Shown one piece after another: positions 18,259 to 40,685 of a stretch of DNA of 41,299 nucleotides. Origin of the DNA: Promethearchaeia archaeon. GTDB lineage: Archaea > Asgardarchaeota > Lokiarchaeia > Sigyniarchaeales > SOKP01. Position 1 is the first letter of the stretch, and each line of letters starts with the position of its first letter. Below the pieces are notes generated by a model that saw only the letters and a list, made by a program, of their open reading frames with translations, did not search any database and was not told the DNA's origin. The DNA lies in NCBI GenBank assembly GCA_046483985.1, contig JAWOCD010000107.1, positions 1 through 41,299 of the forward strand. The letters are read 5' to 3'. Made by a program: the position numbers and the translations under genes.

Positions 18259-18547
18259 TCAATCTTTTCTTCTTTTTTATTTTCTTTATGGATTTCACAA
18301 TAATTTTAGGGTTAATTATCTCGATCTCCTTTTTTAAGATTTCCTTTGGAAATTTTTGGTTTTGTTTTTATGAAATAATTTCTGGGGTAAGAAGCTAATT
18401 ATAAAAAGACCGAAAGATATCTTGTAAGTCTTCGGAAATCTATTGGAAAATAAGCCGCTCGGCGTTCGAGAAGGAGTTTTAAAGAATTGAATTAAAAATT
18501 TAAAATTTAAAAAAATATTAATTAAATAATCGGAGATTAATACATAT

Positions 18548-18943: not shown

Positions 18944-19109
18944 CTATTATTTATTTTTTCTTTTTCACTTTTTATTTTTCTAATCGTGTTTTTCCCTCTT
19001 ATTTTTCGTTATACTTTCATATTGGAAGGGGCTTTATATTATAAAATTGAATATCTTGCCTTCAGAGGGGATGGAAATCTTTAAATGAAAAAAGAATTCA
19101 ATAAATAAT

Positions 19110-26384: not shown

Positions 26385-26596
26385 AATAGGATCAATTCAT
26401 CAAGTAGATTACTAATAATATAATCTTCACATTAGTTTAATTTTTGGGTTATATTAGATAAATTGATTAGAGATCGTGAAAGTATTTCATGCTCTTAAGG
26501 ACAACATGGATTTCTTATTTTTTAAGATTTATTAAAATCTATTCCTATAATTAATTATAAGTAGACTAATATTTTAGTAATGATTTATGAATAGTA

Positions 26597-27448
26597 ATGC
26601 CTAAAGTGGGAATTGAGCCAACCTTTATCGGACGGAACAAGGACTTTCAATTTGTTGTTCCAAAAAAGTTATTTAAACTAAAACCGCCTGAGGAAGATAT
26701 TGAGAGAGCCACAGCAAGAAAATTCAGCAAATATCTTAGAGGAACATTTAAGGGATTTCAAAATGCCAGAGAAACAAAGTATCATAATAAAAGTAATACA
26801 AAAACAAGGACGGAAGATGGATTTTGGAAAGAATTTGAGAAAGAAGCTCATTCGCTTGGAATAGATCTGATAGGCTATACAGCCGTGCGAGAAGAGTTTG
26901 TCTTTTATGATTTGAAGGTATACGGAAAAAATGCCATTATTTTAGGAATGGAAATGAAATGGGAAGAAATAAAAAAGGCGCCTAGTGTATTTTGTGAAAT
27001 TGAATGCTTTAGGGTTTACTATAAGTTAGGGGAGATTACCATACAGTTAACCGAGTTTCTAAAGGGTAAAGGATATAAAAGTGAAGCTCATCATCCTTTT
27101 GGAGGAAAGCTTTTATATCCCCCCCATGCTGTTTCAGCTCACTTAGGTATTATGGGAAGGAATGGGCTGGTAATTACTCCAGAATTTGGTCCAAGACAAC
27201 GATGGAGCATTATAACTACAGATGCTGAGATCCCAGAACCGCCAGTAAAAGATTTTAATGAAATGAAAAAGTTTTGTAAACAATGCGAATCATGCATAAG
27301 AAATTGCAAAGGAGGGGCAGCTCATGAAAATCCAATTAAAAAAGATTGGGGTCAAATTACTCATATCAATCGGTCAAAATGCATCCAGAGTATTCTAGAT
27401 AATAATTATTGTTCTGTCTGCTTGAAAATTTGTCCTCAAGGGAAATAA
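26597..27448 (+). CDS. Reductive dehalogenase / epoxyqueuosine reductase-like cobamide Fe-S protein
   Basis: HLGIMGRNGLVITPEFGPRQRWSIITTD; CKQCESCIRNC and C...CSVCLKICP cluster motifs; no Tat signal. Confidence 0.82.
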   Translation: MPKVGIEPTFIGRNKDFQFVVPKKLFKLKPPEEDIERATARKFSKYLRGTFKGFQNARETKYHNKSNTKTRTEDGFWKEFEKEAHSLGIDLIGYTAVREEFVFYDLKVYGKNAIILGMEMKWEEIKKAPSVFCEIECFRVYYKLGEITIQLTEFLKGKGYKSEAHHPFGGKLLYPPHAVSAHLGIMGRNGLVITPEFGPRQRWSIITTDAEIPEPPVKDFNEMKKFCKQCESCIRNCKGGAAHENPIKKDWGQITHINRSKCIQSILDNNYCSVCLKICPQGK

Positions 27449-27540
27449 TGCAAAATCAGAAGAATTCTCAAGATTTTTCACATTTGAGTTGGACTTTTTC
27501 TTTTAAATTCGTGTATTTTAATTCATAATTATTGAACCCA

Positions 27541-27595
27541 TTAAGTTGAACTTAACTTAAGGATTAAGTTAAAATTTAGAAAAATTTTTTATAAA
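27541..27595 (+). promoter_or_regulatory. Palindromic operator-like site and putative BRE/TATA of the Cys-hdrA operon
   Basis: TTAACTTAA-GGA-TTAAGTTAA (27552-27572) overlapping TTAAGTT-G-AACTTAA (27541-27555); AGAAAAA...TTTTATAAA at about 27578-27595. Confidence 0.45.
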
Positions 27596-27643
27596 TTTAG
27601 AATATTCTAATCTAATTATTAATTAGTTCTGGTCAAGTATAAT

Positions 27644-30600
27644 ATGTCACAATTACAAAGTAGTGTCTTGGTTATTGGCGGGGGAATTGCAGGCATTCAA
27701 ACCTCATTAGATCTAACTGAGCTCGGCTTTAAAGTTTACATGGTGGAAAAGAAATCCACTATAGGTGGAGCAATGGCGCAATTAGACAAAACTTTCCCCA
27801 CTTTGGATTGTTCTTTATGCATTTTGGCTCCTAAAATGGTAGAAGTCTATAGAAACCCCAATATCGATCTATTCACTTATTCATATGTAGACAAAATTGT
27901 GGGTGAAGCTGGGAATTATGAAATAGAGGTTATAAGGAAACCTCGATATGTAAAAGAAGGGATCTGCAAAGGTTGTGGTGATTGTGCAGATATTTGTCCT
28001 GTAAGAGGAATACCAAGTAATTTCGATGAGGGGTTAAAGACTCATTCTGCGGCGCACGTACCATTCCCCTCAGCTGTACCGCCCGTCTATTTAATTGATG
28101 ACAGTAAATGTTTACAAATAAATTACGGGATTTGCGGTCTTTGTCAACAAGCATGTCAAGCAGATGCCATAGATTTCACACAAGAAGAAGAAAAAATCTC
28201 ACTTAAAGTGGGGGCGATAGTCATTGCAACTGGGTGGATTCAAGATAATCCAGAAAATTATCATCGTTTAGCAGGATCCTCTCCCAATGTAGTGTCTAGT
28301 ATGCAATTTGAACGATTACTCTCAGCAAATGGACCTACGGGAGGAGAGTTAATTCGTTTAAATGATAAAAAGCACCCCAAAAAAATTGCCTTCATCCAAT
28401 GTGTAGGATCGCGTGATTTTCACCATCCCGAATGTAAAAAATATTGTTCTGCTATTTGTTGTATGGGAGCCGCTAAACAAGCAATAATTGCTACTGAACA
28501 CGCTCCAGATACCGAGACATTTATATATAATACAGAAATTAGAGCAAAGGGTAAAAACTTCTATGAATTTATCGAAAAGAGTCAAGAGGAGTATGGAGTC
28601 GAATATATTAATGGAAGAGCCTCCCAAATCAAGGAGGACCCTAAAACGGGTGAGCTTTTAATATCTTATGAAGATATGGATAAGGGAATTGTGACAACAG
28701 ATAGAGCAGATATGGCTGTATTGGCCAGTGCGCTATATCCAGATAAATCATATTATAAATTATTAAACTGTTTAGATGCAGGAATAAATGAATTAGAATT
28801 CGTCCATGATGACGATGTAATTAAATTAGAAGAACAAAACATATTTTTTACCGGTTATTCTCGTACGCCAAAAGATATTCCTACCTCTGTAGCAGAGGGA
28901 TCAGCATGTGCCGCAAAGATTAGTGAAAAATTGTATCCCGTTAGATTTGAGGATACGGTTGAATTAGAATTCCCTCCAGAAAAAGAAATCAAAATTGAGG
29001 ATGAACCACGTGTTGGAGTATTAGTCTGTCAATGCGGGATAAATATTGGTGGAGTTGTAGATACAACTGCGGTTGTTGACTATATTGAAAGTTTACCGTA
29101 TGTTGTTCATGCTGAAGAAAATATGTATTCATGCAGTTCCGATTCCCAAGAACGTATAAAAGAAATGATTGAGGAATACGACCTTAATCGGTTTATTGTA
29201 GCCTCTTGTACTCCTCGTACGCACGAACCTCTGTTTCAAAATACCTTACGAGAAGCGGGGTTAAATCCCTTTTTATTCGAATTGGTAAATATTAGAGATC
29301 AAGATTCTTGGGTCCATCAAGATGAACCGGAAGCTGCCACAGAAAAAGCGAAAGATCTCATTCGGATGTATTTAGCGAAAGTTGTTAATTTAAAGCCCCT
29401 CAAAAGACTTAAAGTTGATGTTAAAAAGACAACTTTAGTAATTGGGGGTGGCGTGGCTGGGATTACCGCAGCCCACAATTTGGCTGAACAAGGTTTTGAA
29501 GTCTATATTGCAGATATGAAACCAAAATTAGGGGGGAATTCAATCGAGTTTATTGATTTATATAATCTCCCCATCCATAAACGAGATATTATAGAGGAAA
29601 TTAAGGATTTAAAACGGCTTCCCAATGTTCATGTACTAACTAATCACAAAGTAAACAAGGTATATGGTTATGTTGGTAATTATCATATTTCTGCTCAAAA
29701 TTTGAAAGAAAGTAGGAGTAAGGAATTCGATGTGGGTACGATAATTGTTGCTACTGGATCAAATCAAGGCCAAACTGATCGATGGCAAAAAGTAGCAGAG
29801 AAATACCCCGAGAGAGTTATGACACAAAGTGAATTGGAAGCTAAAACAGAAGACGAACTTCTTGAATTTCAAGATGCTACGATTGTGCTCTGTGTTGACC
29901 AACGTAAAAATGAATACAATAAGGGTGAAAATGTAAAAACATATTGTTCTAATATTTGCTGTATGGTGGCACTGAAAAATATTGAAAAATTATTACAAAT
30001 AAACCCAGAAGCTAATATTCACATATTGTACCGTGAATTACAATTTTCTGACTTGAATTCGGAAAGATTGTGGCGAGAATTAAGAAAAAAACCGAATGTT
30101 TCCTTTGAACGCTATCGCTCTATTGATAACATACAAATTACAGGCAGAAAGAAGCATCTGCACGTTAATTATCCCAACGTGGGAGCTGGATGTAACGTGG
30201 AATATGATTCAGATTTATTAATCATGGCAACTCCCGAAATACCTGCAAAGGGAACGGAAGATTTAGCAAAGATGCTAAAGGTGCCGACAACAAAAGATGG
30301 GTTCTTCTTAGAAGCCCATGTGAAGCTGCGCCCTGTTGATTTTGCAACAGAAGGAATATTTTTATGTGGAGGTGCTCATTGGCCAAAATGGATTGATGAA
30401 AGCAGAATTCAAGCGTATGGAGCTGCGGGAAGAGCGACAATTTTAATGGCGAAAGGAGAAGTAGAAACGGAAGGAATTACCTCTTACGTACAAGAAGAAA
30501 AATGCGTTGGCTGCGGACGATGTGAAGACGCATGTCCATATAGCGCCATAGAAATGATTGAAATTAAGAAAAAAATGGGACTTTATGAAGTTACAGAATT

Positions 30601-30766
30601 AAAAGCCCGTGTAATTAACGCTGTTTGTAAGGGATGTGGAGTTTGTGTTGCTGAATGTCCTTTAGGAGCAATAGATCAAAATCATTTCAGCAAACATCAA
30701 ATTAGCAAGCAAATTGATCTCCTACCTGGAATTAAACAAGAATCCATTGTAAAAGAGGGAAACTAA
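27644..30766 (+). CDS. hdrA: Heterodisulfide reductase subunit A-like, tandem double-module form (all-Cys)
   Basis: Two GGGxAG FAD motifs; QLDKTFPTLDCSLC; inserted 2x[4Fe-4S]; YCSAICC and YCSNICC; internal VCQCGINIG N-domain; C-terminal ferredoxin; EAHVKLRPVDF. Confidence 0.93.
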   Translation: MSQLQSSVLVIGGGIAGIQTSLDLTELGFKVYMVEKKSTIGGAMAQLDKTFPTLDCSLCILAPKMVEVYRNPNIDLFTYSYVDKIVGEAGNYEIEVIRKPRYVKEGICKGCGDCADICPVRGIPSNFDEGLKTHSAAHVPFPSAVPPVYLIDDSKCLQINYGICGLCQQACQADAIDFTQEEEKISLKVGAIVIATGWIQDNPENYHRLAGSSPNVVSSMQFERLLSANGPTGGELIRLNDKKHPKKIAFIQCVGSRDFHHPECKKYCSAICCMGAAKQAIIATEHAPDTETFIYNTEIRAKGKNFYEFIEKSQEEYGVEYINGRASQIKEDPKTGELLISYEDMDKGIVTTDRADMAVLASALYPDKSYYKLLNCLDAGINELEFVHDDDVIKLEEQNIFFTGYSRTPKDIPTSVAEGSACAAKISEKLYPVRFEDTVELEFPPEKEIKIEDEPRVGVLVCQCGINIGGVVDTTAVVDYIESLPYVVHAEENMYSCSSDSQERIKEMIEEYDLNRFIVASCTPRTHEPLFQNTLREAGLNPFLFELVNIRDQDSWVHQDEPEAATEKAKDLIRMYLAKVVNLKPLKRLKVDVKKTTLVIGGGVAGITAAHNLAEQGFEVYIADMKPKLGGNSIEFIDLYNLPIHKRDIIEEIKDLKRLPNVHVLTNHKVNKVYGYVGNYHISAQNLKESRSKEFDVGTIIVATGSNQGQTDRWQKVAEKYPERVMTQSELEAKTEDELLEFQDATIVLCVDQRKNEYNKGENVKTYCSNICCMVALKNIEKLLQINPEANIHILYRELQFSDLNSERLWRELRKKPNVSFERYRSIDNIQITGRKKHLHVNYPNVGAGCNVEYDSDLLIMATPEIPAKGTEDLAKMLKVPTTKDGFFLEAHVKLRPVDFATEGIFLCGGAHWPKWIDESRIQAYGAAGRATILMAKGEVETEGITSYVQEEKCVGCGRCEDACPYSAIEMIEIKKKMGLYEVTELKARVINAVCKGCGVCVAECPLGAIDQNHFSKHQISKQIDLLPGIKQESIVKEGN

Positions 30767-30779
30767 GAGGCAAATAATT

Positions 30780-31265
30780 ATGAAAAAATCTAAAGAAAGT
30801 GAAGAACAAGAATTTCAACCAGAAATATTAGTTTTTTGTTGTAATTGGTGTAGTTATGCTGGGGCGGATTTGGCTGGAGTATCTCGATTTCAATATCCAC
30901 CGAGCATTAGAATTGTACGGGTTATGTGTTCTGGTCGGGTACAGCCTTCCTTTATATTGGAAGCGTTCTCTAAGGGTATTGACGGTGTATTAGTTACCGG
31001 ATGCCATATTGGAGATTGCCATTACATTTCTGGAAATGAATATACTTTAGAGAGAATGGAGCATATGGAAAAGTTACTCGAAAAGTTGGGAATCGAAAAA
31101 GAGCGATTTCGGTTACATTGGATATCGGCATCAGAAGGAAAGCAATTTGCAGAATTGATAAGAGAATTTACGAGGGATGTTAAGAAAGTCGGACCTTCCC
31201 CCATCTCAAAAAAGCTTGGTCAAATAGAATTTCACAGAGAAAGTATAAAACAAGAATCAACCTAA
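30780..31265 (+). CDS. mvhD: MvhD [2Fe-2S] subunit (Cys form)
   Basis: FCCNWCSYAGADLAG, RVMCSGRV, GCHIGDCHY and WISASEG motifs. Confidence 0.95.
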   Translation: MKKSKESEEQEFQPEILVFCCNWCSYAGADLAGVSRFQYPPSIRIVRVMCSGRVQPSFILEAFSKGIDGVLVTGCHIGDCHYISGNEYTLERMEHMEKLLEKLGIEKERFRLHWISASEGKQFAELIREFTRDVKKVGPSPISKKLGQIEFHRESIKQEST

Positions 31266-31286
31266 AAGGAGGAAAAATGAAAAAGA

Positions 31287-32399
31287 ATGGTTGAATCAAA
31301 AAAAAAGACTATGCAAAAAAAAGATGTAAAGACCTTCGAAGATTTAGAAAAGGAAGTAATCCATAATGATCTATGCTGTGCTTGCGGTGCTTGTGTGAGC
31401 TATTGTGAAAGTCAAGCATTTGATGTAATTAAAATGGTGAATTATACCCCCCAATTTAAATCCGATAAAAATGCCGAAAATTGCACTGAGTGCGGTGTAT
31501 GTTATTATATCTGCCCTCAAACAGAACCAATTTTAGAGCAAATAACTCAAAAATATAAAATTGAAGATGAAACTGGGCATATTGAGGATGTTTTGGCGGC
31601 AAAAACGACTAATGAGAAAATAAATGAATTGGGTCAAGATGGAGGAGTCGTTACCACCTTGCTTACATATTTATTTGATAGACATTTGATCGATGCAGCC
31701 GTAGTATCTCAATACGACGAAAAGTTAGAACCAAAGCCAAAACTGGTCTTCAATAAAGAAGAACTACTCAAATCGGCAGGCACTCGCTATTCGGTTTCTC
31801 CCCAGTTTCTCCCGCTTAAGGATCTCTATAACCTTGGACCAGAATCTCTGAAAGAGGGGAATATCTATGATATCAATTCTTTGCGGGTGGCATTTGTTGG
31901 AACTCCTTGCCAACTTCGTGCATTAAGAAAAATGCATTATCTTAATATCAGTCCAGCTCATGTAATTAAATATGTTATTGGGTTGTTTTGTTTTGAGAAC
32001 TTCGATTACAAAAAACTCTACGATATATTAAAGAAAAAGACCAAAACAGAGCCTTCAGAGATTCAAAAAACATGGATTAAAAAGAACTTCTTTTTGAAAA
32101 CAAAGGAGGGGGACGAGCATGAGGTAAATATCAAAAAATTAGATCCGGCAGTCCGGAGCAATTGCCACGAATGTGATGAGTTCACCTCAATGTTTTCTGA
32201 TATCAGCGTGGGTGCGTCCGGAGCGCCTCAAGGATACTCAATGATAATCATCCGTACAGAAACAGGGGAGGAATTGGTAAATCATGCCCTCGCAAACGAA
32301 TATATTGAACGGTATATTGTCCCACCCGAAAAGGGGCAAGAATGGAAGCAGAAAAAGAAGGAATGGTTTAAGAAGATGGTCTCATTTAAAACAAAATAA
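31287..32399 (+). CDS. Coenzyme F420 hydrogenase/dehydrogenase beta subunit (FrhB/FpoF-like)
   Basis: N-terminal 2x[4Fe-4S]; GQDGGVVT, AGTRY, VGTPCQ, GLFCFENF and CHEC...DISVG motifs. Confidence 0.9.
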   Translation: MVESKKKTMQKKDVKTFEDLEKEVIHNDLCCACGACVSYCESQAFDVIKMVNYTPQFKSDKNAENCTECGVCYYICPQTEPILEQITQKYKIEDETGHIEDVLAAKTTNEKINELGQDGGVVTTLLTYLFDRHLIDAAVVSQYDEKLEPKPKLVFNKEELLKSAGTRYSVSPQFLPLKDLYNLGPESLKEGNIYDINSLRVAFVGTPCQLRALRKMHYLNISPAHVIKYVIGLFCFENFDYKKLYDILKKKTKTEPSEIQKTWIKKNFFLKTKEGDEHEVNIKKLDPAVRSNCHECDEFTSMFSDISVGASGAPQGYSMIIIRTETGEELVNHALANEYIERYIVPPEKGQEWKQKKKEWFKKMVSFKTK

Positions 32400-32661
32400 C
32401 GAATGTGCGCCATAATGTCCTAATAAACTTATTTCTTATTCTTTAAATGCCCTTTTAATTATCTTCCTAAATAGTATAGAGATTTTGTTGTAATTTTAAA
32501 TATTTTCAAAATAATCTATAAACAAGGTTATTTTTTAAAAAATCTTTAATTATTATAATTAAAGCTGAATATTGTTCGAAAGATAACAAGTAAACATATA
32601 AATATAGAATCTCTATTATTAATTGAAGAAAAAATATACAAAAAAAAGTGAAAAGTGAAAA

Positions 32662-34584
32662 ATGAGTAAGGCTGAAGAGAAAACTCTTCCGGAAGAAATC
32701 AAAGGTTATTCTCAAAAGCGACTTGACATCGATTTAACTAATGGTTCGATCAAGGAAACTGAACTCTCAGAAGAATTCTGTCGTGATTGGATCGGCGGAT
32801 ATGGATTTGGTGCTAAAGTCCTCTGGGATGAGTTGGAGCCTGGTGTTGATCCTTTAGGGCCAGATAACGTTTTTGTTTGGGCAATAGGACCTTTTCCCAC
32901 AACTATATTACCAACAAGTTCAAAATATGGAGTATTTGCTAAATCCCCTTTAACAGGAATGTTCGGGATGTCAATCTCCTCGGGCTCAGTTGGTGCTCAA
33001 GCACGACGCGCTGGCGTCAATATGATTGTAATTAAAGGAAAGGCTCCAGAACCAGTATATTTAGTAGTGGACGGCGATGATAGATATCTGAAACCGTGCG
33101 AGGATACTGTGTGGGGGAAAGGATGTTGGGAAACCGAAGAGATGATTAGGGAGGAATTCCAAGACCAGAGAATGGCTGTTATGGCTATTGGCCCCGCTGG
33201 AGAACGGACAAGCCGAATGGCATGTATCACCAATGATAGAAATCGCCAAGCTGGTAGAACGGGGATGGGTTCTGTCATGGGAAGCAAAAATCTGAAAGCA
33301 ATGGCGTTTCGGGGAACAGAAGGAATAAAGGTTACCAAGCCAGTAGAATTTTACCAAAAAGCAAAAAAGCTAATTAAAATTGCTAATGGACCAGCAACTG
33401 GAAAATACCGCGATTTAGGAACTCCCGCGGGTTTGACAATTTATAATAAGCTGGGGATGATGCCTTCTTACAATCACCGGGAAGGAGTATTTGATGGAAT
33501 TGATGTAATAAATGGAGAAACTCTCAATGAGGAATGGGTTGAGAAGAAGGTTGCTTGTAGCCAATGTCCCGTTGCATGTGATCACCTTGCCAAGGTCCCG
33601 AAATCTCATCCAGATTATCCTGGATTAGTAGCTAGCGTCGATATTGAACTTATTTATGGTTTCGGCACGGGCACAGGTTGTTCTGATTGGCCGACAATCT
33701 TCAAATGCATTCAACTTTGCGATGATCTAGGAATTGATGCTATTTCTGGTGGCGTTACCGCTCAGATGGCGTGTGAATTGTATGAACTCGGGATAATTAC
33801 CAAAGATGATTTGGGATATGAACTACCTTTTGGCTCCACCCATAATTTGGTGCGATTTACCAGAGAAATGATTCTTGGTGAAGGATTTGCAGGGGAAATT
33901 TTTGGAGATGGAACCAGAAAGGCTGGAAAGCGACTTGAGGAAATGGGTCGTGAAAATGCAAGTTATTATGGAATGAATATTAAAGGTTTAGAGATGCCCG
34001 CTTTTGATCTCCATGGCATGAGTTCTTTTGCTGTTGGTGAAAGTGTAGCCATACGAGGTGCTTGTCATCTTCGAAACGGAGCATACGGTCTAGACAGAGA
34101 TGGTAAATTTGATCGGTTTGCTTATGACAAGCCTCTTAAACGGGGAAAAGCAATAATGGGAAAAGAGGACATATATACAATCATTGACAGCTTTATTATT
34201 TGCAAATTTACCCGTGGAATCTACGAAGACGAAAGTGAAATGGCCGAAGTCTATGAATTAGTAACCGGCATTCCAATGACTGAAGAATTCCTGCTGAAAA
34301 GAGGAGAAGCGATTACCAACTTGTCTAAGTGTTTTAATATCAGAGAAGGGTGGACACGTGATGATGATCATCCCCCAGAAAGACTTTTTGAGGAGGCCCA
34401 TTCAAAAGGACCCGCAAAAGGAGTCACCTTAGAGGAAGAAGGTTTCCAAAAATTGTTATCGGGATACTATGAAACGAGAGGCTGGGATACAGAAACCGGC
34501 ATTCCAACTGATGAAAAATTAAAAGAACTCGGATTAGAGTTTACAATTGATGAAATGAAAAAAGCGAGGGAGAATGTTAAATGA
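32662..34584 (+). CDS. aor: Tungsten-dependent aldehyde:ferredoxin oxidoreductase family protein
   Basis: KSPLTG, IGPAGE, AGRTGMGSVMGSKNLKA, CSQCPVAC, DDLGIDAIS, RGACH, ICKF and YYETRGWD motifs. Confidence 0.95.
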   Translation: MSKAEEKTLPEEIKGYSQKRLDIDLTNGSIKETELSEEFCRDWIGGYGFGAKVLWDELEPGVDPLGPDNVFVWAIGPFPTTILPTSSKYGVFAKSPLTGMFGMSISSGSVGAQARRAGVNMIVIKGKAPEPVYLVVDGDDRYLKPCEDTVWGKGCWETEEMIREEFQDQRMAVMAIGPAGERTSRMACITNDRNRQAGRTGMGSVMGSKNLKAMAFRGTEGIKVTKPVEFYQKAKKLIKIANGPATGKYRDLGTPAGLTIYNKLGMMPSYNHREGVFDGIDVINGETLNEEWVEKKVACSQCPVACDHLAKVPKSHPDYPGLVASVDIELIYGFGTGTGCSDWPTIFKCIQLCDDLGIDAISGGVTAQMACELYELGIITKDDLGYELPFGSTHNLVRFTREMILGEGFAGEIFGDGTRKAGKRLEEMGRENASYYGMNIKGLEMPAFDLHGMSSFAVGESVAIRGACHLRNGAYGLDRDGKFDRFAYDKPLKRGKAIMGKEDIYTIIDSFIICKFTRGIYEDESEMAEVYELVTGIPMTEEFLLKRGEAITNLSKCFNIREGWTRDDDHPPERLFEEAHSKGPAKGVTLEEEGFQKLLSGYYETRGWDTETGIPTDEKLKELGLEFTIDEMKKARENVK

Positions 34585-35114
34585 GTTCACAAAAAAAGAA
34601 AAAGATGCACGAATATATCTTTGTTGACCCCGAACTGTGTACGGGATGCGAAACGTGTGAATCAGTTTGCTCCTTTGTGCATGACGGAGAATTTAATCCC
34701 ATCAATACGCGAATCCATCGGGTACGTATTGAGCCGTTAATTAATATCGCCTTGTCATGTCAAAAGTGTGAAGATGCCCCGTGTATCCGTTCTTGCCCTG
34801 AAAAAGCCTTGGAAAAGGATGCAGAAGGATCGATCATTGTGGATGAAGATAAATGTAATGGTTGCGGATTTTGCGTACGAGCGTGTGATTTTGGTGTAAT
34901 TTCCTTGCATTTAGAGACTCAGAAAGGAATTGTTTGTGACCTCTGTGAGGGAATGAAAGAAGAGTTTATCGACCCTGAAGTGGGAGAAAGAGAGCCACAG
35001 TGTATTGAAGTATGTCCTAAAGAGGCTATTTCGTTGAAGAGCGTGGAGCAAATCGGAGAAGGGACGCGAATAGATGCAGTTCGTCGATTATTCGCCGAAG
35101 AATTAGAACAATAA
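34581..35114 (+). CDS. 4x[4Fe-4S] ferredoxin-like subunit associated with AOR
   Basis: CTGCETCESVC, CQKCEDAPCIRSCP, CNGCGFCVRAC and CDLC...CIEVCP motifs; ATGA overlap with aor. Confidence 0.9.
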   Translation: MSSQKKKKMHEYIFVDPELCTGCETCESVCSFVHDGEFNPINTRIHRVRIEPLINIALSCQKCEDAPCIRSCPEKALEKDAEGSIIVDEDKCNGCGFCVRACDFGVISLHLETQKGIVCDLCEGMKEEFIDPEVGEREPQCIEVCPKEAISLKSVEQIGEGTRIDAVRRLFAEELEQ

Positions 35115-35266
35115 TTGTTTCTCTCTTAATTTTAATTATTCTTTTTTTAATTTATTCTATTCCTTTTATTTTTTTTGATGTCAAGATGAAATCCTAACTT
35201 CTTACATTTAATGATTTTCAAATATAATCAAATTTTTCGAATAATTTATCCCCAAGTATCTAGTCT

Positions 35267-35425
35267 ATGAATGACTCTAAAAAAGAAAGAGCACCCATTC
35301 GGCTTTCCAAAGCAGATTATGAAAGAGCATATGAAAAAGCAAAGGAATTCAAAAAATTAGTTGAGAAGGGGAAAACAAAGGAAGAAATCTTTAAGGATTT
35401 ACTCAGGTTGATATCTGTTGACTAG
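35267..35425 (+). CDS. Small 52-aa protein, putative antitoxin partner (not in ORF track)
   Basis: MNDSKKERAPIRLSKADYERAYEKAKEFKKLVEKGKTKEEIFKDLLRLISVD; overlaps the downstream NTase-like ORF by 8 nt. Confidence 0.5.
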   Translation: MNDSKKERAPIRLSKADYERAYEKAKEFKKLVEKGKTKEEIFKDLLRLISVD

Positions 35426-35720
35426 TGAATCTTTATTACAAATTATTTTTCAGAAAGCTAACCAATTAGAAATACCTATAGTGATTCTTGGAGGATTGGC
35501 ATTACCAGCTTACAATGCTGCTAGAACAACGTTTGACATAGATATTGTACAAATTATAATTAACAATTATAAAGAAATAGATTGGGAATACCTGCGATTC
35601 AGACTAGAGTGGGGTAATGTTAAAAAAGACCTAAAAAAGATTCTAGAAGGACCCGAGGCAACTATGAGAGATGAATTAAAAGATATTTTAGATAAGGCTT
35701 TAAAGCAAACCGAATGCTAA
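35418..35720 (+). pseudogene. Internally shortened nucleotidyltransferase (AbiEii/DUF6036-like)
   Basis: ILGGLAL...RTTFDIDI motif joined directly to C-terminal IDWEYL helices; the usual middle of the domain appears to be missing. Confidence 0.6.
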
Positions 35721-36014
35721 CTTAAAACCAATTATAATAATATAAGAATTGGTATTATTCGACAAAATGCCATTTAAAAAAGGTTTTATCTGATTTTATG
35801 GTTATATTTTTAATGGTTTTCAAATATACCTAATTTCTCCGAATAATTTACCGAATAGAAAATTAATTTTTTAATAGTTAGACTATTTTCATAAATAATA
35901 ATATTCTTATAAAAAAAACAAATAAACTATATAACAACAACTACTAAGAATAATTTTTGTTAGAATCTGAATAAATAATATTCTTCGGAGGAGAAAAGAA
36001 CAAGGTATAGAATA

Positions 36015-37982
36015 ATGTCTGCTAAAGAACAGACCAAGGAAAGTGAACAAAGAATTGGAGTTTTCGTTTGTCGTTGAGGTATAAACATTGCTGGTATATT
36101 AGATGTTCCAGAGATTGTAGAACGGATTAATAATCTGGATGATGAGAACGTTCGAGCCTATGAGTATTTATCTATGTGCACGGAAGGAGGATCTACATAT
36201 ATCAAAGAGCAAATTGAGGAATTCGACTTAGACCGGATAGTCGTGGCCGCATGCACCCCAAAAACGCATCAACCCGTATTTCATGCTATTTTGGATGAAG
36301 CAGGTTTACCACCTCGATACTTAGAGTTTGTCAATATCAGAGAACATTGTTCATTTGTACATCAACAACAAAAGGAAGTTGCCACGGAAAAAGCCATTGA
36401 ATTAATTAAAGCGGGAATTGCACGAGCAAGATTATTAGAAGATGTTCCAACCAAGACTGTGTCGGTAAAAAATAAGGCATTAGTAGTTGGCGGCGGAATC
36501 GCGGGATTATCCTCGGCTATAGATCTTGCAGATGCAGGATATCAAGTTCATTTGGTTGAGAAAAAAACCACTATCGGTGGCAGAATGTCTCAATTGGATA
36601 GAACATTCCCGACTGACGATTGTTCCATCTGAATCCTCGGACCAAAGATGCTTGAAGCTAATCGTCATCCAAATATCAACATATTATCGTATAGTGAAGT
36701 CGTAGAGGTAGATGGGTTTATTGGGAATTTTGAAGTAAAAGTAAAACGGAAGCCCCGATATGTTGAGGAAGATTCATGTACCGGATGTGGTCAATGCACT
36801 GATGTATGCCCGATTTATGTTCCAAATTATTTCGATGAAAACTTATCGGCTCGTAAGTGTATTGATATCTCATTCGCGCAAGCGGTGCCAGCAATTTATG
36901 ATATCGACCGAGAATCATGTGTCGAATGTTTTGCATGCGTAGATGCATGTGATCAAGAATCCATAGATTTCAGTCAGAGAGAGTGGTTTGTTGATCTCGA
37001 AGTGGGTACAATTATAGTCGCAACGGGCTGGGATCTCTATCAAGGAGATGATTACGGTTATGGCGTCTATGATAATGTCATTAGCCAAATCCAGCTTGAA
37101 CGGATACTTGCCCCGAATGGTCCAACCTTCGGACATTTAATACGGCCTTCGGATAGAAAACGACCAAAACGAATACTTTTCATCAACTGCGTTGGTTCCA
37201 GGAACCTCAATACTAATGAGTATTGCAGTGTAGTGTGCTGTAACCTTTCGGTTAAAAACTCAAAACTCATCAAGTCAGAATATCCAGACTCAGAAATAAT
37301 AGTTTCGTATATAGACATGCGTTGCGCTGGGAAAGATTATGAGGAATATTTTAGACGAGCTCGTGACGCGGGAATTGTCTTTACCAAGGGAAAAGTAGGG
37401 GAAATCGAAGAGGACACCGAAACAAAAAATCTCCGTGTGAAAATGGAACCAGTAGGGACAGACACCGTCTTAGAATCTGAATTTGATCTGGTTGTTTTAT
37501 CATCGGCCTCTCTACCATCCCAAGGCACGAAAGAGATCGCACAAGTACTCAATATTGAAAAAAGTGCGGATGGATTTCTAAAAGAGTATCATGCTCGCTT
37601 AGATCCTATTAATACGAAAGTACCCGGAATCTATTTGGCAGGATCTTGTCAAAGCCAAAAAGGAATTGACAAAACGGTTTCTCAAGCAAAAGGTGCCGCC
37701 TCATCGGCTGCAATTCCCATGGGAAAGGGAGAATTCACAATGGAACTAATCCGAGCAAAGCCCTTAGATGAGAGATGCGCGAAATGTTATAAATGCATAG
37801 AATCTTGTCCATACAGCGCTATTTCAGTCAATGAAAAAGGAAATTTGGTCGTTGATATCATTAAATGTAGAGGATGCGGAACGTGTGAGAGTGTATGTCC
37901 TTCTAAGGCGATTGAACTAACCTATTATCGAGATGACCAGTATATGGCATATATTGACGAATTATTACCGATCGAGGATTAA
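36015..37982 (+). CDS. hdrA: Selenocysteine-containing HdrA (655 aa; Sec21, Sec206)
   Basis: ATG 36015 is in frame with ORFs 36174-36632 and 36648-37982. TGA 36075-77 in RIGVFVCR-U-GINIAG aligns with RVGVLVCQ-C-GINIGG of the paralog. TGA 36630-32 in DCSI-U-ILGPKM aligns with DCSL-C-ILAPKM. Confidence 0.93.
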
Positions 37983-37986
37983 AGAG

Positions 37987-38421
37987 GTGTCAAATATTAC
38001 AAATAATGGAGATATTAGAATAATTGCTTTCTTGTGCTGGAAATGAGGATATGGTGCAGCGGATATGGCCGGAACCATTCGAGCTCAATATCCTCCATCA
38101 ATCCGGACTGTTTTAGTTCCATGCACTGGACGAGTAGGTTCTGAAGTGATTATGAGAGCATTTGGACGGGGTGCCGACGGCGTAATGGTCGTGGGATGAT
38201 ATCCAAAAGAATGTGATTATGAAACCGGAAATTACTTCGCACATCGGCAAGTAGAGTACCTCAAAAATGTATTAGAGACCGCAGGACTGAGCAGTAAAAG
38301 AATCATAATGGAGTTTTGCAGTGCTGCAGAAGGTCAGAAATTCCAAAAAGTCGCTACGCAATTCGACAAGGAAATTAAGGAACTTGGTCCTTCCCCTTTG
38401 CGGGCGGATGACAAACGATAA
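37987..38421 (+). CDS. mvhD: Selenocysteine-containing MvhD/VhuD (about 144 aa; Sec20, Sec71), missed by ORF track
   Basis: GTG start (ATT 37996 after GAGGTG is an alternative). FLCWK-U-GYGAADMAG (TGA 38044-46), VPCTGRV, VVG-U-YPKECDY (TGA 38197-99), FCSAAEG; TAA 38419-21. Both TGAs match Cys of the MvhD at 30780. Confidence 0.93.
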
Positions 38422-38430
38422 AAGAAATAA

Positions 38431-38507
38431 AATGTGCTCCTAATGAGGCCAGATTACAAAATGTTAGAATTTGGCTGAAGAATAGGAAGCCCCTTTTAAC
38501 GCACATT
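38431..38507 (+). promoter_or_regulatory. Eukaryote-like SECIS element in 3' UTR
   Basis: Helix I TCCTA/TAGGA; core ATGA (38443-46) and TGAA (38476-79); helix II GCCAGATT/AATTTGGC; apical AAAA (38458-61); outer stem AATGTGC/GCACATT. Confidence 0.88.
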
Positions 38508-38665
38508 TATTTATCCACATTTACCATCAAGAAAAAATATAAAAATCATAACAAAAAGTTCCAAAATATTAAAATTTAAAGAAACAAGGTTTAAAGTATA
38601 GTTGAGAAAACTAATTTATCATTATTATTAAAAAAATTTATTAAAAATTAAAGAGTTGGAGTCAA

Positions 38666-39805
38666 GTGAAAGTTAAAGGAGAATATCTTATAAAATATGA
38701 AGATTTTCCACAATTGTTAAAAACATTATTAGATGAAGGAATAATCGATAAAATCATTGGTGCAAAACCCAAGATCAGCCGAAAAACTGAAGAGGAGGAT
38801 AGATTATCCATCTCTCCTGAGGTTTACGAAGAGTCAAATGATATTGAATCTTTTCCTCTCTCAAACCTCATAGCATATGGCTATGCCAGAACAGACTCTG
38901 CTGCCAAGTATCTCCAGTCGAAACTAAACGGCGCCAAAGAGGAAAAGATCGGCTTAGTAGCACGACCATGTGACACGCGCGCGATAGTCGAACTGGTCAA
39001 GATTCGGCAAGTCAATTTGGATAATCTGTTCATTATCGCAATGGAAGATAGAGGGTTAATCCCGAAGGTCTCCCGTTCTATGCGAAAACACAAGGATATT
39101 GACACGACCGAAGTGGTTCGGGAAAAGATCGTGGACGATGGATTCCAATTTTTATTTGAAGGCGGAGATACTAAAACAGTAGATTTAGAAATTGCTGATA
39201 ATTGCTCCCGTTGCGTTAGCAAGACTCCTGCTATTGCTGATATTTCGGTTTCCAATGTGGGCGTGCCCATTGATTCGGACTCGCTCATCTTGAAAGTGTA
39301 TTCGGAAAGCGGACAATCTATCCTCGATAAGGCTGGATTGGATCTTGACGCCTTACCGGATGATTTGAAAGAGAGCCACACTGAAAAGATGGAAGAATTA
39401 TTGCAGAAGGCACAAGAAAAACGGGAAGGTGATTTAGAAGAATGGAACAAGCTCTCGCAGGAAGATAAAATTGAAAAGTTACAGAAATGCACAATGTGCG
39501 GAATGTGTATACGCGCATGTCCCGTCTGTTATTGTGTCGATTGCATCTTGCAGAAGAAACGGAAGGAAAAAACGATCAATAATGAAACTTATCAACTGAC
39601 GCGAATTGCTCATGTTGCAGACAGATGTGTTGAATGCGGAAGCTGCGACAATAACTGCCCCATGAGTTTGCCACTATCATTATACTTCCAGTCACTCAAT
39701 GACGCATTTAAGGAGAAGTTTAACTATGAAGCCGGAAAGTCCGTGGATGACGTACCTTTCCGTTCAGGTGAGGCAATAAAGTCGATGGAATTAGAGAGAA
39801 CATAA
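38666..39805 (+). CDS. FdhB/FrhB-family Fe-S flavoprotein with C-terminal 2x[4Fe-4S]
   Basis: ARPCDTRAIVELVKIRQVNLDNL, NCSRC...ADISV, CTMCGMCIRACPVCYCVDC and CVECGSCDNNCP motifs; GTG start. Confidence 0.85.
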   Translation: MKVKGEYLIKYEDFPQLLKTLLDEGIIDKIIGAKPKISRKTEEEDRLSISPEVYEESNDIESFPLSNLIAYGYARTDSAAKYLQSKLNGAKEEKIGLVARPCDTRAIVELVKIRQVNLDNLFIIAMEDRGLIPKVSRSMRKHKDIDTTEVVREKIVDDGFQFLFEGGDTKTVDLEIADNCSRCVSKTPAIADISVSNVGVPIDSDSLILKVYSESGQSILDKAGLDLDALPDDLKESHTEKMEELLQKAQEKREGDLEEWNKLSQEDKIEKLQKCTMCGMCIRACPVCYCVDCILQKKRKEKTINNETYQLTRIAHVADRCVECGSCDNNCPMSLPLSLYFQSLNDAFKEKFNYEAGKSVDDVPFRSGEAIKSMELERT

Positions 39806-39896
39806 ATATCTTTTTTACTTTTTTATTTATTGTCTCTTATTTAATATTAATAAGAAAAACCAACTATAATATATATCAAGCTAAGAAGTGTTTTAT

Positions 39897-40685
39897 ATGA
39901 GTCTTCCAAAAAAAGAAGCAATTAAAGAAGGACGTGTGACCAAATATATCTATAAAATGCTCAATCACATTCAAACGCTGAAATATGATGACGATAAGTG
40001 CATTGAATGCGGTTTTTGTCATCGTGTATGTCCTGTCACGACCATGGAAGAGGATGGAAAAGAACGGGTTATTAAGCGAACGGCAATCGGAACACCAGAG
40101 GATATGAAAATCGATAGCGATCAAAAGACCGTTGTGGACTTAGATAAATGTATCTGGTGTGGGTGTTGTACATGGATTTGCCCAGGTTATACGTTAGAAT
40201 TGGATGTTAACGGGGAAGAGAAAGTAAATTTAGTCGAAAATGGATCTCTGCCCGAATTCAAGGAAGAGGTGCGAGAGTTAGAAGATGGTCAAAAGGTACG
40301 GAAAGTGGTGGAAGGAAGTATTACCATCACTAGCACCGAAGAGGACCCAGAAATAGTGGAGAGATTTGCCGATGAATGTTCTGTCGGCGCGTTATCGGTA
40401 AGTGAAGATAATGAAATCGTGGTAGACGAAGATAAATGCATTCTCTGTTTTAAATGTACCGAAGCCGCAGAAAACTACGAGAATATTGATGTAGATATCC
40501 ACCGTGATCGATTTATGGATGTGAAAGGAGAAGTATCTTCCGTCTGGAACGGCATTATGCTTCGAGTGACCGGTAAGGAAGGAAAGATTAAAGGAATTAA
40601 GAGTCTTAGCCAAAATAAACTCGCCGATTCGGTCATGCGTTTATTAGGCCGGTTAGAAGAGGAAGAAGAAGAGGAAGAATCCTAA
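39897..40685 (+). CDS. Polyferredoxin (FwdF-like)
   Basis: CIECGFCHRVCP, CIWCGCCTWICP and a degenerate pair (EC...CILCFKC). ATG 39897 is preferred over GTG 39888. Acidic tail. Confidence 0.8.
   Translation: MSLPKKEAIKEGRVTKYIYKMLNHIQTLKYDDDKCIECGFCHRVCPVTTMEEDGKERVIKRTAIGTPEDMKIDSDQKTVVDLDKCIWCGCCTWICPGYTLELDVNGEEKVNLVENGSLPEFKEEVRELEDGQKVRKVVEGSITITSTEEDPEIVERFADECSVGALSVSEDNEIVVDEDKCILCFKCTEAAENYENIDVDIHRDRFMDVKGEVSSVWNGIMLRVTGKEGKIKGIKSLSQNKLADSVMRLLGRLEEEEEEEES

Follow-up and report, generated by a model that had tools for sequence, protein, structure and literature searches.

Aldehyde oxidoreductase genes among HdrA-MvhD units of a Lokiarchaeia archaeon: a possible link between aldehyde oxidation and flavin-based bifurcation

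Ten redox genes of a Promethearchaeia archaeon (Lokiarchaeia), among them two for HdrA and two for MvhD, raise the question of which catalytic partner these subunits serve, and whether it is the aldehyde oxidoreductase (AOR) encoded between them. All ten lie on the + strand at positions 26597-40685 of the window, i.e. the entire 41,299-base contig (C42), so that the cluster ends about 600 bases from the contig end. Gene identities were derived from Pfam, NCBIfam and PDB sequence searches (Table 1). The original observation of about 14 kb of co-oriented redox genes without hdrB, hdrC, mvhAG, fdhA or frhAG holds, as none of these genes was detected in the window, and the identification of HdrA, MvhD, FrhB/FdhB-type subunits, AOR and polyferredoxin was borne out by family and structure-sequence matches. 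Pfam revealed no hydrogenase or Hdr subunits among the 18 larger ORFs of positions 1-26384. The stretch looks like four neighbouring, separable gene units divided by AT-rich gaps of 196-900 bp; T runs also occur in those of 263 bp (upstream of AOR) and 900 bp (downstream of the Fe-S gene).

Table 1. Features of the redox gene cluster and its spacer.
Feature	Unit	Positions	Strand	Remarks
RdhA-like Fe-S protein	1	26597..27448	+	283 aa; TIGR02486, PceA 8q4h_A
Fused-dimer (type II) HdrA	2	27644..30766	+	1040 aa; 5odc_A in three pieces
MvhD (Cys form)	2	30780..31265	+	PF02662 193.8 bits
FrhB-type F420 reductase subunit	2	31287..32399	+	PF04422, PF04432
AOR large subunit (WorL/AorB type)	3	32662..34584	+	PF01314, PF02730
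Four-cluster Fe-S small subunit (WorS/AorA type)	3	34581..35114	+	9mqx_E, 8c0z_C, 6x6u_B
Spacer with two small ORFs (52 and 100 aa)		35267..35720	+	no Pfam match
Type I HdrA with two Sec	4	36015..37982	+	TGA at 36075 and 36630; NF040770
MvhD/VhuD with two Sec	4	37933..38421	+	TGA at 38044 and 38197; start codon uncertain
FdhB-like Fe-S subunit, degenerate N (flavin) domain	4	38666..39805	+	7bkb_E, 8rvu_E
FwdF-like polyferredoxin	4	39888..40685	+	5t5i_F, 7bkb_K

The large subunit of unit 3 scored far above the cut-offs of PF01314 (335 bits) and PF02730 (228 bits). Compared with solved chains it reached 352 bits for 8c0z_A, 332 bits each for 9mqx_D and 1aor_A, and 172 bits for BamB (4z3w_A). T243, E313 and H448 (PfAOR numbering; PMC13328260, section 5) and the [4Fe-4S] cluster cysteines are present and Y427 is replaced by Phe. 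Judged by these features, the protein is an aldehyde-oxidising member of the AOR/WOR family with putative tungsten use. The Fe-S gene overlaps the AOR gene by 4 bp. The nearest solved counterparts of the two subunits (together AOR-FeS) are AorAB (8c0z) and WorLS from the bifurcating class IV WOR1 (WorABCSL; Acetomicrobium mobile 9MQX, Eubacterium limosum), with WorL and WorS among the best matches (332 bits and E 1.3e-26). In WOR1, ferredoxin and NAD are described as the acceptors coupled to aldehyde oxidation (PMC13328260, section 11), and the idea of aldehyde electrons split between ferredoxin and a higher-potential carrier would be common to both systems. The WorABC module of WOR1, however, is of the NAD-reducing NuoEF/HydBC type, whereas here the neighbours are HdrA and MvhD with F420-type subunits. 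Class IV WOR was rejected, as no WorABC module lies beside AOR-FeS; NuoE/NuoF-like genes were seen on contig C45, next to an FdhA, and none in the window.

In unit 2, HdrA is a fusion of type II, with two thioredoxin-reductase domains per chain and complementary accessory domains (5odc_A match and alignment). The N-half contains the DCSLC motif and an inserted ferredoxin domain without N-terminal or C-terminal domain, the C-half shows the reverse, and equivalents of K409 and E356 are present in both. Type II HdrA clusters in archaea that metabolise methane or alkanes (PMC12054007, PMC9012536) likewise combine a fused HdrA, its halves lacking the N-terminal domain and Cys197 in complementary fashion, with MvhD and an FrhB/FdhB homologue. 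In contrast to the ANME HdrA3/4 described there, the halves are reversed (Cys197 motif in the N-half, N-terminal domain in the C-half), neither HdrBC nor a non-catalytic molybdopterin protein is encoded in cis, and the host is an Asgard archaeon. MvhD starts 14 bp after the HdrA gene, and its FlpD domain scored above the cut-off.

The FrhB-type subunit is composed of an N-terminal 2x[4Fe-4S] domain and FrhB N and C domains, with passing scores for PF04422 (74.7 bits) and PF04432 (135.5 bits). Since it stays below the cut-offs for FrhB (TIGR03289, 177.8 vs 331.5) and FpoF (159.6 vs 475), it is a family member and neither FrhB nor FpoF proper. Its closest solved relatives, 8rja_E (E 3.6e-56) and 8riu_B, are the F420-reductase subunits of Fwd and CODH from Ca. 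Ethanoperedens thermophilum (8RJA, 8RIU; PMC11493965), likewise combining ferredoxin and F420-reductase domains in 359-370 aa, and they suggest that the unit 2 protein binds F420. Unlike the Ethanoperedens subunit, which is bound to Fwd/CODH, it is encoded 22 bp from MvhD and the fused HdrA, 263 bp upstream of AOR.

HdrA of unit 4 possesses the full domain set of type I: N-terminal cluster, thioredoxin-reductase core with FAD motif, and inserted and C-terminal ferredoxin domains. With 773.8 bits for NF040770 (model positions 1-641) it falls below the equivalog cut-off of 1100 and therefore represents a paralogue class. The K409/E356 pair is invariant in the alignment and Sec occupies the Cys197 position; equivalents of both residues, which are named for HdrA in PMC12054007, are kept in all four HdrA thioredoxin-reductase units compared. 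All four TGA codons (two in HdrA, two in MvhD) align with Cys of the Cys paralogues in the window. For Sec-MvhD (NF045873 VhuD, 150.6 bits) both U positions correspond to Cys of the unit 2 MvhD. RNA-library contigs span 36606-36753 of Sec-HdrA, identical to the window, and 38045-38228 of Sec-MvhD with zero differences. No Rfam family reached its gathering score in the window; a single shared SECIS after VhuD is described for Lokiarchaeota by Mariotti 2016.

The FdhB-like subunit matched 7bkb_E (E 6.5e-38 over residues 80-359) and 8rvu_E (5.1e-30). Its C domain and Fe-S domain align to residues 81-380 of 7bkb_E, and, like true FdhB, it carries a two-cluster domain resembling HdrC (Fer4_8/Fer4_17). 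PF04432 yielded just 40 bits, the N-terminal piece does not fit the PF04422 profile (14.5 bits, E 0.041), and the Gly-rich motif present in two FrhB paralogues is deleted. PF04422 is also absent from all FdhB-like homologues among the matches listed (120). F420 binding by this protein thus appears doubtful, which weakens the F420 role originally assigned to it, and without the N-domain profile the subunit probably does not act on a substrate itself. An FdhB of F420-dependent formate dehydrogenase was rejected for the failed N-domain profile and the deleted motif, and because no F420-type FdhA was found in the genome. The adjacent polyferredoxin matched 5t5i_F (E 1.7e-16) and 7bkb_K (4.4e-14) and follows the FdhB-like gene in G019, G016, G009 and G008 as well; sister-family genomes have a solitary FdhB-like gene with no HdrA beside it.

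The order of unit 4, i.e. FdhB/ElpB, MvhD/ElpC, HdrA and FwdF/MvhB-type polyferredoxin, resembles Fdh-Hdr-Fmd of M. hungatei (7BKB) and ElpABC-HdrABC-MvhB-Fwd of M. marburgensis (8RVU; PMC12350162). In contrast to these systems no FdhA/ElpA was found for unit 4, HdrBC is not encoded in cis, the organism is no methanogen, and AOR is the conserved neighbour. ElpB and FdhB are described as binding FAD and oxidising F420H2 (PMC12350162), whereas the N (flavin) domain of the FdhB-like subunit is degenerate.

The RdhA-like protein of unit 1 scored 74.7 bits for TIGR02486 (RDH; cut-off 160), is considerably shorter than PceA (283 vs 464-503 aa) and aligns only to residues 235-393 of PceA (8q4h_A, E 3.3e-17); a true reductive dehalogenase was rejected on these three grounds. 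Orthologues lie upstream of AOR in G019, G016, G010, G020 and G005. The possible cobamide need proposed originally rests solely on this truncated protein below the family cut-off and is weakened accordingly.

Partner genes missing from C42 were found elsewhere in the genome. Family searches gave no hits on C42 for the CCG domain (HdrB/HdrD), the [NiFe] large subunit and the molybdopterin domain, with 42, 4 and 3 hits on other contigs, respectively. The three molybdopterin hits are one NuoEF/GltD-linked (NAD-type) FdhA and two FwdB-like genes, so that no F420-type FdhA was found; nor was an ElpA homologue. Fwd genes are present. In agreement with the expected F420 pathway, the genome encodes CofD (153.6 bits), CofH (458.1 bits, above its cut-off of 374.1, with a radical-SAM neighbour) and two copies of CofE (252.8 and 217.4 bits). 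A self-contained Mvh/HdrABC set on C98/C2 has its own HdrA and MvhD and therefore does not need those of the present cluster. About 21 CCG-domain genes occur in the genome, including HdrC-HdrB pairs on the HdrA-free contigs C2, C75 and C25. Canonical HdrABC was rejected for the cluster itself, as the only CCG candidates are in trans (C82, C2, C75, C25).

For unit 2 these candidates matter. Orthologues of the unit were found only within the same family (24/36 genomes), and its type lies near AOR-FeS in 4 of 36 related loci. A CCG-type neighbour (HdrD or HdrCB type) accompanies it at 5/6 loci away from AOR, as against 0/5 beside AOR. Genome G027 contains unit 2, with no AOR orthologue found there. 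In the present genome the HdrD orthologue is located on C82, at a syntenic site now without unit 2. Unit 2 is mobile and moved next to AOR in the present lineage. Given the HdrD/HdrCB neighbours and the C82 HdrD, its partner is likely encoded elsewhere. The possibility that canonical partners elsewhere account for the subunits applies to unit 2, but not to the Mvh/HdrABC set with its own HdrA and MvhD.

The synteny sample consisted of 36 of the 61 places where an AOR match reached 45% identity or more; relatives in this and the co-occurrence counts are non-independent samples. The Fe-S subunit adjoins the AOR orthologue in 32/36 loci. HdrA or MvhD lies at most 10 kb from AOR-FeS in 17/36 loci and is missing from the retrieved stretch in the other 19. 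Conservation of synteny therefore applies to AOR-FeS near HdrA-MvhD and not to the complete layout: both Hdr units surround AOR-FeS only in G009 (1/36), and there without the RdhA-like gene. Unit 4 type genes accompany AOR-FeS in 8/36 loci, and in G008 unit 4 is on a different contig from AOR-FeS. Five of the 36 loci show an operon-like HdrC-HdrA-MvhD-X-AOR-FeS string, as seen in one sister family, with gaps of 17-67 bp (3/5 from single-contig genomes); its HdrA and MvhD are orthologues of the canonical C98 copies (68.6% and 71%) and so represent a third paralogue. Across lineages three different HdrA paralogues accompany AOR-FeS. The other AOR paralogues of the genome, 8 in number, served as a control, and all are on contigs without HdrA. 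Among 60 relatives AOR and the FdhB-like gene were both present in 44 and both absent in 8, with AOR only in 6 and FdhB-like only in 2. Their co-absence is weak evidence, since neighbouring genes disappear jointly irrespective of function; in 13 same-family genomes (G000 included) the two lie 3.4-24 kb apart on one contig. Unrelated genes of 0.2-5 kb often separate the units in relatives.

We tentatively infer that AOR-FeS is a catalytic arm of HdrA-MvhD complexes, comparable to class II benzoyl-CoA reductase and the bifurcating WOR1, with complex, direction and acceptors all part of the proposal, and rate this slightly below an even chance. Unit 3 would be a two-subunit tungsten AOR whose small polyferredoxin subunit passes electrons to a flavin module. 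Unit 4 would form an electron-transfer spine as in the methanogen Fdh/Elp-Hdr-Fmd supercomplexes, lacking an arm of its own, which AOR-FeS would supply, and unit 2 would be an F420-linked Hdr module. Aldehyde electrons would pass from W via [4Fe-4S] and the Fe-S subunit to the Fe-S chain of the FdhB-like protein, which aligns to the FdhB/ElpB chains contacting MvhD in 7bkb and 8rvu, and on via the MvhD [2Fe-2S] to the HdrA flavin. There they might be split, one share reaching ferredoxin by way of the HdrA ferredoxin domains and polyferredoxin, the other an acceptor of higher potential: F420, via the unit 2 FrhB-type subunit, or a CCG-type HdrB/HdrD encoded elsewhere. Precedents are class II benzoyl-CoA reductase, in which a fused HdrA and a Sec-MvhD are connected to an AOR-family W enzyme with its Fe-S subunit (10.64898/2026.04.10.717634), WOR1, and the FrhB-like subunit joined to Fwd and CODH in Ethanoperedens. 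Such a pairing may be an undescribed coupling of aldehyde oxidation to energy metabolism. Of the original proposal of an F420- and ferredoxin-linked bifurcating system tied to aldehyde oxidation, the genes, the F420 pathway and the linkage in 17/36 loci stand, while the separable units and the single locus with both Hdr units around AOR-FeS count against it. The coupling is weakened by the units not being one operon. Methanogen hdrA and hdrCB are usually unlinked, so the missing hdrBC in cis says little. The aldehyde/acid couple is as low as the ferredoxin potential or lower, so that on standard potentials bifurcation is unnecessary.

There is a plausible, if on balance improbable, alternative: AOR-FeS may be an ordinary ferredoxin-reducing AOR with the Hdr units as independent neighbours using partners elsewhere. 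Unit 2 and the C82 HdrD would then be an F420H2-dependent bifurcating reductase and unit 4 a selenium isoform for MvhAG/HdrBC, having only the ferredoxin pool, and perhaps regulation, in common with AOR-FeS. The AT-rich gaps, the unrelated inserts in relatives, the HdrD/HdrCB genes beside unit 2 off AOR, the HdrD at the emptied C82 site and the HdrC-HdrB pairs without HdrA all agree with it. Elp-Hdr and type II HdrA-FdhB clusters are described as F420H2-dependent Hdr with HdrBC (PMC12350162, PMC12054007), and Mariotti 2016 reads Loki HdrA-VhuD pairs as Vhu/Hdr parts. Against it speak the position of AOR-FeS beside three HdrA paralogues in different lineages, including the tightly spaced string, the control of the other AOR paralogues, and a canonical Mvh/Hdr set already equipped with HdrA and MvhD. 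Furthermore, the FdhB-like protein apparently cannot bind flavin, and no FdhA/ElpA homologue was found for it.

We consider it unlikely that the complex works in reverse, making an aldehyde from a carboxylic acid in the manner of class II benzoyl-CoA reductase. F420H2 (via the FrhB-type subunit) or reduced ferredoxin would feed the HdrA flavin, the low-potential electron reaching the W site through the Fe-S subunit and the high-potential electron a CCG-type subunit or F420. Acid reduction requires electrons below the ferredoxin potential, which speaks for this direction. So does the wiring described for Bam[(BC)2DEFGHI]2 of Geobacter metallireducens, where an AOR-family W subunit with poly-[4Fe-4S] partner, in the low-potential branch, is joined to a fused HdrA (BamE) and Sec-MvhD (BamF) (10.64898/2026.04.10.717634); HdrA of unit 2 is also fused, with one inserted ferredoxin domain. 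Unlike BamB, the present catalytic subunit is of the aldehyde type (352 bits to AorB vs 172 to BamB; E313, H448 and T243 kept). Instead of a BamD-like CCG and NuoEFG-like BamGHI, FrhB-/FdhB-type subunits are encoded in cis, and the genes form several units, not one operon. Class II benzoyl-CoA reductase (BamB-I) was itself rejected on these scores and the missing CCG/NuoEFG-like genes. Two further points speak against this direction: the cluster has no alcohol dehydrogenase next to it, the two SDR genes at 17446-19967 being 13 kb off, and amino-acid fermentation is the lifestyle described for cultured relatives (PMC7015854). The main text of PMC13328260 mentions HdrA only for benzoyl-CoA reductase; F420, MvhD and Asgard are absent from it. 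Very improbable in our estimate is that the Hdr units are non-bifurcating ferredoxin:F420 oxidoreductases refilling F420H2 for the methanopterin Wood-Ljungdahl pathway, unrelated to AOR, as the intact FrhB-type subunit and the F420 biosynthesis genes would allow. Soluble FpoF does this job in Methanosarcina, a point in its favour. But the K409/E356 equivalents characteristic of bifurcating HdrA are kept in all units, there would be no need for Sec-MvhD and the polyferredoxin, and the recurrent AOR neighbourhood would be left unexplained.

The two small spacer ORFs between units 3 and 4 are probably not part of the system. The 100-aa ORF resembles, by eye, a portion of a 203-aa ORF that lies in this spacer in G002. 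T-rich runs lie 3' of the Fe-S subunit gene, and the last ORF of the contig (40828-41157) is on the opposite strand.

Ten genes, all in the same orientation, were assigned to the redox cluster by Pfam, NCBIfam and PDB sequence searches (see the table). The window is an entire contig of 41,299 bases from a genome of 4.06 Mb that is 97% complete. The original prediction described a supercluster built around an aldehyde ferredoxin oxidoreductase (AOR) and lacking HdrBC, hydrogenase and FdhA. This lack was confirmed, as genome-wide family searches placed no CCG domain (HdrB/HdrD type), [NiFe] large subunit or molybdopterin domain on the contig, and Pfam detected no hydrogenase or Hdr-type subunit in the 18 larger ORFs left of position 26384. 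All four in-frame TGA codons of the selenocysteine unit (Sec-HdrA, Sec-MvhD, FdhB-like protein, polyferredoxin) align with cysteines of Cys paralogues from the same window. Multi-Sec HdrA-VhuD pairs are known from Lokiarchaeota, as described in part of Mariotti 2016.

Four salt-lake metatranscriptome runs from two studies yielded contigs matching the window. RNA contigs without differences covered parts of the AOR, the AOR/Fe-S junction, the Fe-S gene and the polyferredoxin, and spanned one TGA codon each of Sec-HdrA and Sec-MvhD. These independent RNA-library data confirm the TGA codons and suggest that genes of the cluster are transcribed. One stretch that includes the whole fused HdrA gene was covered by no contig from the four runs, which is not readable as silence of the fused-HdrA unit (fused HdrA, MvhD, FrhB-type subunit). 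A transcript start about 18 bases 5' of the AOR start, behind a TATA-like run, was considered and rejected, since the contigs of the two runs X3 and X4 that end there come from the same study and there are loose ends.

Locations of the features discussed. Positions without prefix refer to the window; C, contigs of the source genome; L, loci fetched from related genomes or from the source genome (L083, L089); G, related genomes.
Feature	Location	Strand	Remarks
RdhA-like protein	within 26597-40685	+	truncated
Double (fused) HdrA	27644-30766	+	1040 aa; followed by MvhD and FrhB-type subunit, gaps 14 and 22 bp
AOR	32662-34584	+	4 bp overlap with Fe-S subunit
Four-cluster Fe-S subunit	34581-35114	+	
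Selenocysteine unit	36015-40685	+	HdrA (two in-frame TGA), MvhD (two in-frame TGA), FdhB-like, FwdF-like polyferredoxin
TGA spanned by RNA contigs	36630; 38197		Sec-HdrA; Sec-MvhD
AOR/Fe-S junction in RNA contigs	34474-34689		
No RNA contig	26400-30872		
Ends of X3/X4 contigs	32642-32646		
Spacer ORF	35418-35720		100 aa
ORF in same spacer of G002	L043:1433-2044		203 aa
SNF2-type helicase gene	22782-26384	-	
SNF2-type helicase gene of G009	L045:237-3815		
ORFs of 1139, 536, 238 and 236 aa	2964-6383; 14946-16556; 1902-2618; 16667-17377		no Pfam match at E 1e-5
C85 supercluster	C85:91170-101142 (L083)		Sec-HdrA, MvhD, FrhB, FrhB, HdrD-like, fused HdrA, MvhD; tightly packed
C74 cluster	C74		fused HdrA::MvhD, HdrC, HdrB
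C98 cluster	C98		HdrC, HdrB, HdrA, HdrD-like gene
[NiFe] large subunit, N-terminal piece	C98:24-260; C98:77261-77497	-; +	equal scores
[NiFe] large subunit, C-terminal part	C2:54717-55775		contig terminates inside
NapH-like protein	C66:1621-2964 (L089:1621-2964)	-	447 aa
360-aa protein	L055:7859-8947		counterparts in L056, L058, L071, L074, L075
HdrL-like protein	L047:4083-6845		920 aa; also L048, L050, L052-L054, L070

Searching the whole source genome by tblastn, we found nine HdrA genes, nine MvhD matches and six FrhB-family matches, several of which sit in clusters with CCG subunits (C85, C74 and C98). The C85 supercluster contains the same part types as the window, but with a CCG subunit and without AOR. 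The original prediction had left room for canonical partners elsewhere. A canonical hydrogenase set is indeed present, split over C98 and C2 (MvhD, MvhG and, at the contig ends, MvhA, followed by HdrC and HdrB), and it has its own HdrA and MvhD. The N-terminal piece of the [NiFe] large subunit occurs at both ends of C98, and the gene is probably a collapsed repeat breaking the assembly at C98/C2. An FdhA acting in trans with the FdhB-like protein was rejected, as the three molybdopterin matches of the genome are the sole FdhA (1079 aa, on contig C45 with NuoE-, NuoF- and GltD-like genes) and two genes of FwdB type with FwdD/FwdA-like neighbours. From these placements it follows that the canonical complexes hold their own HdrA and MvhD, and no F420-type FdhA was found for the FdhB-like protein. 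The F420 pathway, on which the original prediction also depended, is represented by CofD, two CofE and CofH above the cut-off.

Among solved chains, the AOR is closest to AorB (8c0z, 352 bits), followed by WorL of the bifurcating WOR1 (9mqx) and the P. furiosus AOR (332 bits each). With 172 bits to BamB, an identity as BamB was dismissed, as was membership in class IV of the tungsten oxidoreductases (WORs), because no WorABC-type genes adjoin the AOR. The enzyme keeps T243, E313, H448 and the cluster cysteines; at position 427 it carries Phe, where PfAOR, AorB and WorL have Tyr. Tyr427 is one of four residues given as characteristic of aldehyde-oxidising WORs in section 5 of PMC13328260. The nearest solved relatives of the Fe-S subunit are WorS, AorA and the WOR5 small subunit. 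In our HdrA alignment, equivalents of K409 and E356 are present in all four thioredoxin-reductase units compared, and the domains of the fused HdrA are distributed in a complementary way over its two halves. A 447-aa protein encoded on C66 combines a NapH-like Fer4_5 domain with a C-terminal domain that shares 73% identity with the Fe-S subunit; this protein may be a membrane-anchored form of that subunit.

The FrhB-type and FdhB-like subunits differ in their likely chemistry. The FrhB-type subunit has its nearest solved relatives in Ethanoperedens, where F420-reductase subunits are attached to Fwd and CODH (described in part of PMC11493965), and it aligns to residues 6-244 of an FdhB chain also matched by the FdhB-like protein. 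The latter aligns only from residue 80 onward to the FdhB and ElpB chains of Hdr supercomplexes (for the ElpB type see part of PMC12350162), and its close homologues in public records belong to Promethearchaeota or Lokiarchaeota. PF04422 reached only 14.5 bits (E 0.041) on its N-terminal piece and 15.2 bits in one of four scanned relatives, with no match in the other three, and none of 120 homologues among the matches listed carries this domain. Furthermore, a Gly-rich motif and a 12-residue stretch found in two FrhB paralogues are missing. Thus the FdhB-like protein is probably without flavin, and, given the weak N-domain score, the missing motif and the alignment of the FrhB-type subunit over residues 6-244, F420 chemistry appears plausible for the fused-HdrA unit and doubtful for the selenocysteine unit.

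AOR orthologues were defined by at least 45% identity (paralogues reach at most 38%) and occur at 61 places outside the source genome, 36 of which were fetched. The conservation of the cluster was only partly borne out. The Fe-S subunit adjoins the AOR in 32 of 36 loci and HdrA or MvhD lies within the fetched stretch in 17, but both Hdr units surround the AOR pair in G009 only, there without the RdhA-like gene. The selenocysteine unit follows the AOR at 0.2-7.6 kb in eight loci (G019, G016, G002, G009, G010, G020, G021, G035), and the fused-HdrA unit precedes it in four (G002, G009, G011, G014). In a sister family the arrangement HdrC-HdrA-MvhD-X-AOR-FeS, with gaps of 17-67 bp, was found in five loci (G054, G050, G055, G040, G044), three of them in single-contig genomes; its HdrA and MvhD are orthologues of the canonical C98 copies. 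X is a conserved, Cys-poor protein of 360 aa without Pfam match or similarity to either FrhB-type protein and without homologue in the source genome at E 1e-20; it could be an adaptor. The eight other AOR paralogues of the source genome served as a control, and all of them lie on contigs without HdrA. In 60 relatives, the AOR orthologue and the FdhB-like gene occur together in 44, the AOR alone in six, the FdhB-like gene alone in two and neither in eight; in 13 same-family genomes with both on one contig, including the source genome, they are 3.4-24 kb apart. This co-occurrence has modest weight, because the relatives do not count as independent samples and genes next to each other are lost jointly. 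Such joint deletion of neighbours is also why the absence of both genes in G001, G024 and G027 was downgraded as evidence of coupling.

Near the AOR orthologue, seven of 36 loci encode a 920-aa HdrL-like protein in which a GltD-like flavoprotein is fused to an Fe-S domain resembling HdrC and a CCG domain resembling HdrB. In the source genome, the search for a full-length orthologue gave only split matches to C82 and C45.

FrhB-type orthologues of the fused-HdrA unit were detected in 24 of 60 relatives, every one in the same family. One genome (G027) has the unit while an AOR orthologue was not found. Away from the AOR, an HdrD or HdrC+HdrB gene directly adjoins the unit in five of six loci, the sixth being at a contig end; beside the AOR this applies to none of five. 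In G008 the unit is flanked by an HdrD gene and an EamA-type gene; at the collinear site in the source genome (C82), the flanks and the HdrD orthologue (58% identity) are still present but the unit is missing.

The AOR and its Fe-S subunit are of the tungsten enzyme type in which the small subunit donates electrons to a module carrying flavin (AorC, WorABC or BamE), and the selenocysteine unit is a bifurcation spine with an FdhB-like arm seemingly without its own substrate. For these two reasons we propose the AOR pair as the catalytic arm of this unit. The HdrA flavin would then split electrons between ferredoxin and a higher-potential acceptor, either F420, reached via the FrhB-type subunit, or a CCG subunit encoded elsewhere. 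For WOR1, part of PMC13328260 (section 11) argues that when aldehyde is scarce and acid abundant, ferredoxin is reduced only if a second, exergonic acceptor pulls the reaction, and by analogy this rationale should apply here. A directional variant would have the same complex run Bam-like acid reduction. The main rival explanation treats the units as neighbours that act independently, their partners being encoded in trans. It is favoured by the gaps between the units and the genes inserted there, by the 19 of 36 AOR loci without HdrA or MvhD and by the HdrD history of the fused-HdrA unit; the tight sister-family operon and the control with the other AOR paralogues speak against it. A further-reaching reading is offered tentatively, as a possibility we hold with considerable doubt. 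It is that Asgard archaea of the Lokiarchaeial class possess a tungsten oxidoreductase complex of a class not described so far, built on an HdrA-MvhD bifurcation core whose usual arm, a hydrogenase or formate dehydrogenase, would be replaced by an ordinary aldehyde-type AOR and its Fe-S subunit. The role of adaptor would fall to an FdhB relic that has lost its flavin or, in the sister family, to the 360-aa protein. Electrons would leave at high potential through either of two interchangeable partners, F420 (FrhB-type subunit) or a subunit of CCG type. For the fused-HdrA module of this lineage, the AOR pair would have taken the place of the CCG subunit.

Every part type in the cluster is already known. 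According to the parts of the literature covered, BCRII already combines a fused HdrA, Sec-MvhD and an AOR-family enzyme, and F420-linked Hdr systems are known from Elp-Hdr and type II HdrA clusters. The main text of the WOR classification of 2026 (PMC13328260) contains no aldehyde-type AOR paired with HdrA-MvhD. In the portions covered of PMC7015854, PMC11291895 and 10.1101/826495, lokiarchaeial archaea are credited with MvhADG-HdrABC, FlxABCD-HdrABC and many AORs, unlinked, and no link of aldehyde-type AOR to HdrA-MvhD was found; supplementary files (Chadwick S2 Data, Mariotti synteny, PMC13328260 Supplementary Dataset 1) may list such neighbourhoods. Electron bifurcation determines how much energy is available to strict anaerobes, and lokiarchaeial metabolism is central to syntrophy models of eukaryotic cell origin. 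Should the AOR pair really feed HdrA-MvhD cores, ferredoxin and F420 would be reduced with electrons from the aldehydes of amino-acid fermentation, the five-class tungsten oxidoreductase scheme would need a further class and Bam-type wiring would be a general design instead of a speciality of aromatic-ring reducers. Since relatives are in culture, the question is testable now.

Rfam (gathering) and tRNA scans of the window gave no matches, and four of its ORFs had no Pfam match. The spacer ORF downstream of the Fe-S subunit resembles, by eye, the N-terminal part of a longer ORF in the same spacer of G002 and is probably the remnant of a gene. Support for the integrity of the contig comes from the SNF2-type helicase gene that precedes the cluster, since in G009 a gene of this type also adjoins the fused HdrA on its upstream side.
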